64,000 nucleotides of DNA from Lama glama (GCA_028534125.1 CM052816.1:5892001-5956000); one strand, 5' to 3'. Positions 9,138 to 11,200 are shown, counted from the first letter of the stretch. Notes: generated by a model not told the origin, from the sequence alone. Made by a program: numbers and translations.

Positions 9138-9169
<32 letters not shown>

Positions 9170-9212
9170 CAATTATAAAAATATTATAAATAATAATTAT
9201 TATATAAAAAAA
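9138..9212. repeat. (AAT)n microsatellite and AT-rich tract
   Basis: About 10 AAT units followed by degenerate AT-rich sequence, next to a minus-strand MIR remnant. Confidence 0.9.
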
Positions 9213-9454
9213 AACAAGTAGCAGCAGCCGCAGTGGCCAAGACAAACATTTGAGTATTTACAAAGAACAGAGCGCTCAGCTGAGTTTCTAACGTGTGACT
9301 TCATTTTGCCTTCCCAACAATCTGATTTTTATCATTTCAAAGGCATAGATGAGAAAATTGGGGCTCAAAGAGAGTAAGTTCCTAGATTCACAGAGTCCAA
9401 ACATTCAGACAGGAATCTTACTGACTGCATGGCTCCTGACTCAACTTACAAAAA

Positions 9455-11200
9455 TTTTTTTCTTCTAAATGATGTTTATGTTTTTAGAACAGTATTTCTT
9501 TATATATGGATTGCAACCTAAGAGCTAGGGGAAGAAGGAACAGAGGAATGTCTGGAGGACTTGAAGTCCCAAGCCTTACCCAGTGGTACCATTGTTGCCT
9601 TACAAAGTCCATCAGATCCAGGAGATTCAGGAATATTCCCCCAGGGGAGCTGAGAAATGTCCCATGCTCGATTCTGTCAGGAGGAATATCCAGGAGTACA
9701 GTGGTTCTTTCTTTCTTCTTTCCTTTCTTTCCTTCCCTTCCTTTTTTCTTCCTTCCCTTCCTTCTTCCTTCCTTCCTTCCTTCCTTTCTTCCCTCCCTTC
9801 CTTCCCTCCTTCCCTTCCTTCTTTCCCTTCCTTCCTCCCTCCCTTCCCTCCTCCCTTCCTTCCTTTCTCTCTCTCTCTTTCTTTCTTCCTTCCCTTCCTT
9901 CTTCCTTCCTTCCTTCCTCTTTCTTTCTTTCTTTCTTTCTTCCTTCCCTTCCTTCCTTCTTCCTTCCTTCCTTTCTCTCTCTCTCTTTCTTTCTTTCCCT
10001 CCTTCCCTTCCTTCCTTCCCTTCCTTCCCTTCCTTCCTCCCTTCCTTCCTCCCTCTCTCCCTTCCTTCTCTCCTCCCTTCCTTCCTCCCTTCCTTCCTCT
10101 CTCCCTCCCTCCCTCCCTCCCTCTCTCCCTCCCTTCCTTCCTTCCTTCCTTCCTTCCTTCCTTCCTTCCTTCCTTCCTTCCAATCTCTGTAAGATGTAAT
10201 GGCAACTTGAGATGTGCTTTTTTAGCATCTAAAAGAGATTCCAAGAAGTCTTTGGCTTCTCCTTCAGTAGGATCTCCACTGAGGTCAAGCCCCAAAACTG
10301 CATCCTCTATAGAAAGGAAGACCTCTTTGCCAAGTTTAACAGTCTCCTTGGCTACTGAAGGGCCACCTCTTCTGTGGATTCCTATCAAACACCTAACATC
10401 AATGTCTAAGTTTTCTTCTTCAGACTGTTTAATACTCTCAAGTACATATTCCACATAAATCCCTTTTTTAAAAAATTAAGTCATCCCTGTAGCATTTCCT
10501 CTTCTGGGTGTGCTCCTAAGTTTCAGGCACCTGACACCACCAGCTGGAATTCTTTAATGACATCTTTTGTCGCCATTAAAATATCTTCAGGGTTAGTTGT
10601 AAGTTGATGAATCAGGTGATACATCTGGAAACATTCTTCTACAGTTCTTTGCTTTCCCCTGTGAATCACAGTCACCCGATTATGGACTTTAAGATCTGGC
10701 TTCTTAATAATTTCTTCCAGTACTAGAACTAATGGGTCCATTCAAGTGGGCATGAGGTTTTGCTTTAGGTAGCTCTGAGTAAAAGGCGGTGTCCATGGCT
10801 GTGGTAGTTCTTCTGCCTCCACCATGACTTAGTGGAATAAAACGGTCTTTCTCCACACACTTTCATTCTTGGTATGAATGATGCAGTGTATTTCGGTCAG
10901 CAAGTTCTGTGGTCTTGAATTTCCTAAAGATTGCTTTACGTCTGCACATTAGGGTAAGATTAGCTCCACATGCAGCCCTGGGCTCAGCTTCATCACCGTG
11001 GTGGACATCAGCTCCTGAGCCTCTCCTGGCCTGGAGCCCTCGCAGCCCTGAGCTCCAGCGACGGCAGCATCCTCTGCAAGAGTCCCCTGGCTGCGCAGGT
11101 ACCCACAGAACCCTCTGCAGCGCTGACGTTTCCAGGACCACGCTGCTCACCGCTCATCCACTGAGGCTGTTACACGAACGCCTGCGCAGTGCAGCCCTGC
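9455..11200 (-). pseudogene. ADAL: Processed (retrotransposed) pseudogene of ADAL/MAPDA, with 5' UTR, disrupted CDS and short 3' end
   Basis: Minus-strand translations across frames follow mammalian ADAL with no introns: ATG at 10825 (MVEAEE), ..FYSELPKAKPHAHLNG.., KKPDLKVHNRVTVIHRGKQRTVEECFQMYHLIHQLTTNPEDILMATKDVIKEF (ORF 10523-10741), IKQSEEENLDIDVRCLIGIHRRGGPSVAKETVKL...VLGLDLSGDPTEGEAKDFLESLLDAKKAHLKLPLHLTEI (ORF 9627-10454), then after the repeat VLLDIPPDRIEHGTFLS...DLMDFVRQQ. Several frameshifts are present. A short A-run lies at 9455-9464. The 5' boundary is approximate and I found no convincing TSD. Confidence 0.95.
9705..10181. repeat. Compound (CCTT/CTTT/CCCT/CT)n microsatellite, 477-bp pure polypyrimidine tract inside the ADAL pseudogene
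   Basis: Only C and T on the + strand from 9705 to 10181; ends in a perfect (CCTT)n run. Confidence 0.98.

Follow-up and report, generated by a model that had tools for sequence, protein, structure and literature searches.

The minus strand of this locus carries an intronless copy of ADAL, the gene for the N6-methyl-AMP deaminase, that runs across an unused splice donor and stops a short way into an intron, and the question it raises is what kind of RNA served as its template. We compared 40 kb of the parental locus with the 64-kb window, by which we mean the whole stretch of DNA that was analysed, and obtained ten collinear blastn matches with no introns between them. Minus strand 11199-9455 is a dead, very old intronless ADAL retrocopy; the processed pseudogene as a whole (9455..11199) extends from the 5' UTR to an A-run and includes a secondary microsatellite, its 5' limit being taken from the alignment to the parent and its 3' limit from the break in homology. 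A search of the animal's own genome placed parental ADAL at G000:C8:70370587-70387646 on the plus strand, on a contig (C8) unlinked to the one that holds the copy (C1). At the parental locus introns separate the matches across 14.7 kb. In the copy, eight of eight upstream introns are precisely absent and the exon 8/9 junction is visible in the alignment. Because the introns are gone, duplication at the DNA level was ruled out. The pseudogene is the sole ADAL retrocopy detected in this genome.

The copy can be followed exon by exon. At its 5' end, a copy of non-coding exon 1 (5' UTR, 10994..11199) matches C8:70370587-70370823 in two overlapping blastn pieces (11200-10990), with 71.6% identity, a K2P distance of 0.365 and an approximate boundary to exon 2. 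The exon 2 copy, placed at 10763..10993 by alignment to the parent and matched by blastn at 10937-10763, contains the former start codon ATG at 10825-10823. Copies of exons 3 to 8 follow without introns at 10182..10762, interrupted by frameshifts and stops, in six blastn matches of 81-86% identity: exon 3 at 10759-10632, exon 4 at 10633-10563, exon 5 at 10570-10486, exon 6 at 10468-10390, exon 7 at 10394-10268 and exon 8 at 10263-10185. A further match at 9714-9463 takes in exon 9 and the sequence that follows it. Coding exons 2-8 retain 80-86% identity to the parent by blastn.

Decay is extensive. Seven in-frame stops, one TGA and six TAA, lie within the match to ADAL residues 11-215, and exons 5 and 9 carry frameshifting indels. 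Beyond exon 8, a (GGAA)n microsatellite of 116 units and 475 bp (9707..10181) stands where the parent reads CCAAACCAAAAAAAAGAAACC; the array arose secondarily within the pseudogene, in place of the initial A/G-rich codons of exon 9, whose opening ATT still adjoins the last codon of exon 8. The rest of the exon 9 copy (…DRIxHGTFL…DFVRQ…PL, 9580..9714) has a 9-nt insertion and a 1-nt deletion. The longest open piece, of 98 aa, scores 19.3 bits against Pfam A_deaminase (PF00962), below the cut-off of 27, and a second open piece of 72 aa gave no Pfam A_deaminase match; ADAL descent is assigned because of the DNA homology and not because of a domain score.

The 3' end is where the copy departs from an ordinary processed pseudogene. 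The splice donor, reading frame, TAG, TATAAA, CATAAA and A-run that the first-pass annotation had read off the minus strand all lie where it had placed them. The strand reads ...CCACTGG|GTAAGG: the exon ends with the G at 9580, and the unused 5' splice-site GT of intron 9 stands at 9579-9578 (9578..9579; G|GTAAGG, parental donor G at C8:70385208). From this donor onward, 117 nt of intron 9 read-through (9463..9579) align ungapped to C8:70385208-70385324, with 74.6% identity and a K2P distance of 0.339; the longer match of 9714-9463 to G000:C8:70385080-70385324 shows 73.6% identity over 254 columns (E 8e-37). As had been proposed, this segment represents the first part of the parental intron that follows the exon ending in IPL: the 117-118 nt past the donor align gapless to the beginning of intron 9, 88 of 118 positions being identical. 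Over the final 60 nt up to the endpoint, 43/60 positions match the parent; over the next 60 nt identity falls to the chance level of 17/60, and homology to the parental intron ends within one base of 9463. Immediately beyond, preceded by a G at 9462, lies a poly(A) tail remnant of seven A (9455..9461) that is not templated by the parental intron, which reads TTAGAA|ATTAACTG at the endpoint, without an A-tract. At 7 nt the A-run is short, as expected at the pseudogene's age. The best match between the flanks is a 7-mer lying away from the junctions and equalled in 157 of 2000 shuffles; no target-site duplication was demonstrable, so the insertion's 3' limit is set solely by the A-run and the loss of homology. 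The 3' flank at about 9230-9440 may carry a MIR-type SINE core; searches of the own genome and the window with this segment matched only the locus itself.

Two further features of the read-through stood only in part. The frame of the copy continues ...VPLGKAWDFKSSRHSSVPSSPSS and is closed by a TAG at 9520-9518 (9518..9520), as had been described, but this stop is probably particular to the copy and probably arose in the pseudogene, because the parent has CAG there and other lineages have Q or H. Likewise, the variant poly(A) signals are present in the copy, TATAAA at 9504-9499 and CATAAA at 9475..9480, 12 nt before the endpoint, but neither occurs in the parental intron 9 segment, which instead has AATATA four bases further upstream than the CATAAA. 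In a scan with a list of signal hexamers, AATATA was the sole listed one in the parental intron, where it occupies intron nt 96-101 and leaves a gap of 16 nt to the endpoint. AATATA and CATAAA are known weak variants of the poly(A) signal; since the copy's hexamers differ from the parent's, the signal actually used is uncertain. Among translated intron fragments, those of two other species, P0002 (…FVLNI) and P0157 (…CSKYID), fit the same AAATAT stretch, a back-translation that is no proof of it.

Nothing of the canonical ADAL sequence follows this endpoint. Both that absence and the removal of all upstream introns had been claimed, and both hold: the eight introns are gone, and in a tblastn search with full-length ADAL (P0006), residues 257-355 found no match in the 64-kb window (best E 0.88). 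In the parent, residues 257-292 and 288-355 are encoded by two exons 1.6 and 2.2 kb downstream; these exons 10-11, which carry the Asp-Asp motif, are missing from the window. When 1.5 kb of 3' flank was compared with the rest of the parental gene, nothing significant was found (best E 0.31, over 18 nt). Conceivably the retrocopy was once longer, having been full-length or having retained all of intron 9, and was cut back later by deletion or rearrangement, the A-run then being a coincidence. Such a history would be compatible with the failure to identify a target-site duplication and with a locus that has clearly been altered since insertion, the 475-bp microsatellite included. It would, however, require a break that meets the A-run to the base, 12-16 nt past a hexamer resembling a poly(A) signal and within the intron that also terminates a known isoform, and would have to account for exons 10-11 and the deeper part of intron 9 being untraceable in the window. 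We regard later truncation as a remote prospect.

A different alternative concerns the template itself, which could have been a partly spliced pre-mRNA still containing intron 9, primed at an internal A-rich patch, with no real short isoform behind it. The first-pass annotation had named a genomic A-run at the parental endpoint as the sign of such priming, and the present parent has none (TTAGAA|ATTAAC), so that objection to a real isoform fails. The parent does read AAA at this point (TTAGAAATTAAC) and its ancestor could have been A-richer; the A-run in the copy is only 7 nt long, and a target-site duplication that is not demonstrable leaves some further room for internal priming. Set against these points are the hexamer resembling a poly(A) signal at the expected distance of 10-30 nt from the end and the removal of all eight other introns, more in keeping with a completed mRNA than with a nascent transcript. 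The read-through form also exists today, curated as an isoform in human and assembled as spliced transcripts from pig, bat and a seal-like animal. Taken together, these leave internal priming a slim chance.

We consider it very probable that the pseudogene is a retrocopy of a finished intronic-polyadenylation ADAL mRNA, with exons 1-9 spliced and the copy inserted by a LINE. The template would have been a short ADAL mRNA from which introns 1-8 had been spliced out and in which the intron 9 donor was left unused. Its transcript would have been cleaved about 117 nt into intron 9 and have received its poly(A) tail there, which amounts to intronic polyadenylation with a composite terminal exon, and the finished short mRNA would have been reverse-transcribed and inserted by the LINE (L1) machinery; we infer the L1 mediation as well as the exact cleavage site and signal. 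After insertion, the copy decayed through stops, frameshifts and the 475-bp (GGAA)n expansion. It had also been suggested that the short message was abundant in the germline, a claim that the copy does not bear out, as one retrocopy requires just one template molecule.

Such a template would fall into the isoform class to which the annotated human ADAL isoform 2 belongs. A human short isoform had been put forward earlier, and it exists with exactly the ending given for it: P0186, 'adenosine deaminase-like protein isoform 2 [Homo sapiens]', which we took from the member list of one 90%-identity cluster, has 267 aa and ends FVRQHRIPL|GKAWSFRSSR. In this isoform the donor left unused in the copy is read through after …FVRQHRIPL, the human tail GKAWSFRSSR matches the copy's GKAWDFKSSR at eight of ten positions, and, as in the copy, the C-terminal third bearing the DD motif is lacking. 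Human isoform 2 exists as a living transcript and the copy as its DNA fossil in another mammalian order; the two also differ in where the read-through stops: after 10 residues in human, 20 in the copy and 40 in the parental gene.

The same read-through is found in many mammals, and an attribution to a non-primate lineage was too narrow, the isoform being annotated in primates as well. Human isoform 2 and six other primate entries end IPL|GKA(W/C)SFRSSR; the GKAWSFRSSR tail recurs in five Old World monkey entries (P0188, P0189, P0190, P0194 and P0197) and in a 232-aa human entry (P0196), the orang-utan tail is one change away from the human one (GKACSFRSSR), and that of a sifaka reads GKAGFRSLRQ. 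Spliced read-through proteins from pig (P0136, which is UniRef A0A481B7B0_PIG, P0139, P0140 and P0004) end GKASGPPG(R/W)PLSPSP, a spliced read-through form from the bat Phyllostomus discolor (P0010) ends GKA, and a seal-like spliced read-through transcript (P0005 and P0007, from a JGI data set) ends GKV; a metagenome scan for the seal-like P0007 returned 149 pattern matches, of which 0 were confirmed. Tail length is thus 3 residues in bat and seal-like animal, 10 in human, 15 in pig and 40 in the own parental gene, beside the 20 of the copy, and by these comparisons the read-through tail varies between lineages in both length and sequence and is not conserved. In the own parental gene the first in-frame stop lies at C8:70385327-70385329, 3 nt past the fossil endpoint, so a parental message cut at the old site would be without a stop codon. 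A protein search with the tail only (residues 40-86 of the parental read-through) gave 9 candidates and 0 at E <= 10, because the tail is too short for the database. The 24 sequencing runs were all assembled contigs; one is recorded as RNA, with a word share of 0.50, and such a share is no evidence of expression. This exon boundary has another annotated short ending as well, IPL|D or IPL|DR, in human X4, macaque, rabbit and beluga, and also in armadillo, a seal, Rhinolophus bats and dog-like Logan transcripts.

How old the fossil is can be gauged from its divergence. K2P distances between copy and parent are 0.34 in the intron part, 0.35-0.37 in the 5' UTR and 0.19-0.30 in the coding exons. 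The intron part has diverged as much as the 5' UTR, and nothing in these distances would point to selection on the tail or the site. The neutral rate is about 2.2e-9 per site per year; a K2P of 0.34 over two lineages suggests, as a rough inference, an insertion roughly 60-100 million years old. The claim that the event is old is upheld by this distance in the intron part and by a set of cetacean sequences that group with the copy.

These sequences emerged from a search with the 98-aa piece, which found short 'hypothetical proteins' from narwhal (P0176) and fin whale (P0179) together with an unnamed ENA sequence (P0177), all three with several ADAL exons without introns and with pseudogene-like defects. 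We built a tree of 157 columns from 22 rows, one of them made by merging the two window pieces. In it P0176, P0179, P0177 and the window copy form a clade (support 95/94) distinct from two further groups, the functional camelid ADALs (96/98) and those of toothed whales (87/84), and in five columns the copy and the cetacean sequences share a derived state that occurs in no functional ADAL. Forcing the copy to group with camelid ADALs cost 10.7 log-likelihood units (AU p 0.07) and forcing the cetacean sequences to group with cetacean ADALs cost 14.3 units (AU p 0.04), the groups in both tests having been named after the tree was seen; the AU tests speak only weakly against the camelid-lineage and cetacean copies having arisen independently. 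A younger, camelid-only origin is disfavoured by the tree, with an AU p of 0.07 that is not a firm exclusion. By a crude measure, camelid ADAL proteins come nearest to the parental exons among the proteins of >= 300 aa that were compared. Because the cetacean sequences group with the copy, the insertion is probably older than the divergence of camelids and cetaceans. P0176 (Monodon monoceros) and P0179 (Balaenoptera physalus), whose intronless, decayed ADAL-like frames resemble that of the copy, are probably the orthologous pseudogene; they differ in being known as protein models and in having frames that run only as far as the beginning of exon 9, short of the copy's 3' end.

What protein such a message would encode can be predicted from the living short forms. 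Of the 330 positions of Pfam A_deaminase, the pig short form spans 1-239 and the full-length protein 1-326. The short-isoform protein would end after about 258 ADAL residues, without the last third of the deaminase fold and the Asp-Asp motif, and because that part is lost the short product would be expected to be catalytically inactive. In its available text, the preprint 10.1101/2024.05.23.595515 reports four human ADAL isoforms, places the zinc-binding H208 together with the DD motif 293-294 only in the full-length protein, and describes ADAL-knockout cells in which modified AMPs were cleared only by full-length human ADAL and the Arabidopsis enzyme. The 267-aa form is likely among these four, so far as that text goes, and the inactivity of the human short isoform has apparently been shown there already (10.1101/2024.05.23.595515). 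In the available part of PMC7152754, the phrase 'isoform 1' appears merely within the enzyme's name.

A stronger reading is that the real isoform is, in addition, a selected and regulated off-switch for N6-methyl-AMP deaminase activity. The short isoform is annotated in many mammals, and the IPL|D or IPL|DR ending provides a second truncation route at the same exon boundary in several species. In the available tables of PMC11541570, human ADAL is among the genes with a RefSeq- or UCSC-annotated intronic-APA transcript, with truncation ratios of 0.25-0.66 in the breast-cancer lines MCF-7, MB361 and BT549, the intron concerned being unstated; one of five human rows is significant under Torin (p 0.004). 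The same tables speak against a switch in leaving the other four rows without change under Torin and in giving mouse Adal a truncation ratio of only 0.026-0.038. The immune-cell atlas PMC5928244 does not list ADAL in its four supplement files. Adal-knockout mice are moreover viable and fertile, according to the accessible text of 10.1101/2024.05.23.595515. A selected switch would also sit poorly with a tail that ranges from 3 to 40 residues, with an intron part that has diverged as fast as the 5' UTR, and with an own-genome stop 3 nt beyond the fossil cleavage site, which might leave the message without a stop codon. We therefore think a regulated off-switch unlikely. Its full form, in which premature polyadenylation about 117 nt into intron 9 would be an ancient mammalian event, at least as old as crown Artiodactyla, shared with primates and maintained by selection to lower the output of N6-modified-AMP deaminase, is in our judgement improbable; if it were true, the pseudogene, its cetacean orthologues and possibly a rhinoceros pseudogene (…PLGKA), described below, would be dated germline records of the switch. 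Nothing in these results shows regulation of the isoform or selection on it; the pseudogene, for its part, is inert.

Processed pseudogenes have reportedly been treated before, by Shemesh et al. in 2006, as fossils of past transcript isoforms, and the ADAL copy fits that concept in being a retrocopy that keeps an alternative mRNA form of its parent. In the accessible portions of two atlases (PMC5928244 and PMC11541570), composite-terminal-exon isoforms share with the copy an unused donor, cleavage shortly downstream in the intron, a truncated coding region and a short intron-encoded tail; these portions give no position for an ADAL site. Pseudogenes as records of past isoforms are an established idea and the human short isoform is already annotated. 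Within the library searched, we found no paper on an ADAL retrocopy, none visibly about ADAL intronic polyadenylation and, judged by titles and abstract openings, nothing on retrocopies of intronic-polyadenylation isoforms. What is new is the fossil itself and its probable sharing with cetaceans, which gives the isoform a minimum age: the read-through message was probably made, in the germline, before the split between camelids and whales, a lower bound that extends to the annotated human isoform. The locus is thereby a small, concrete case in which retrocopies are used for dating intronic-polyadenylation events. ADAL clears N6-modified AMPs that would otherwise inhibit AMPK, according to the available text of 10.1101/2024.05.23.595515, so a long-standing truncated and predicted inactive isoform merits a look from those who study this pathway.

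One further sequence may extend this record. The rhinoceros hypothetical protein P0178 is intronless and pseudogene-like and ends …TPLGKA. In the tree it falls outside the clade of the pseudogenes, and a placement inside that clade is not rejected (AU p 0.18). P0178 may represent the same insertion, or it may be a second, independent fossil of the short isoform.

The read-through frame of the short ADAL isoform, in which exons 1-9 are spliced and the intron 9 donor is left unused, remains open for 40 codons at the parental ADAL locus of this genome (intron 9 read-through stretch, positions 1629-1750 of stretch L002, corresponding to G000:C8:70385208-70385329). Its first stop, a TAA, begins 3 nt downstream of the fossil cleavage point, the position 117 nt into parental intron 9 where the homology of the pseudogene to its parent stops. 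Because this stop lies just past that point, present-day use of the old site would yield a stop-less message.

A hypothetical protein from the rhinoceros Diceros bicornis minor (P0178) consists of a pseudogene-like ADAL frame without introns, which spans exons 6-9 and ends in …TPLGKA. Its intron 9 donor is also read through, as in the Lama glama pseudogene, so the short ADAL isoform may have left a second fossil in P0178. A hypothetical protein from the bat Cnephaeus nilssonii (P0185) is a short ADAL-like frame in which exon 6-7 sequence is fused to C-terminal exon sequence (…SVWDLSCESINYIFASDSTRSELK), and it has the appearance of a decayed retrocopy of full-length ADAL mRNA. Another family of short ADAL forms ends in IPL|D or IPL|DR, at the exon boundary of the read-through forms (P0187, P0193, P0026, P0070, P0120, P0127, P0146, P0147 and P0152), and is found in human, macaque, beluga, rabbit, armadillo, Rhinolophus, dog-like transcripts and a seal. 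These forms represent the same ADAL truncation reached by a different splice route.

Within the ADAL pseudogene lies a (GGAA)n array of 475 bp and 116 units (window 9707-10181). It occupies exactly the place that matches the start of parental exon 9, a purine-rich run (CCAAACCAAAAAAAAGAAACC), and looks like an in-situ microsatellite expansion for which coding sequence served as the seed. Some 20 units of a (TAT)n/(ATA)n repeat form an array 260 bp past the A-run of the pseudogene (window 9138-9197). The 3' flank of the pseudogene (window 9230-9440, minus strand) may resemble a MIR-type SINE core; when searched against the window and its own genome, this flank matched only the locus itself.

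Elsewhere in this genome, an intronless copy of adenosine deaminase (ADA, not ADAL) is located on the minus strand of contig C2 (positions 533-1342 of stretch L017, corresponding to G000:C2:39221333-39222142). Its 269-codon frame is uninterrupted and shares 25% identity with ADAL residues 117-342, and the copy is probably an ADA retrocopy.
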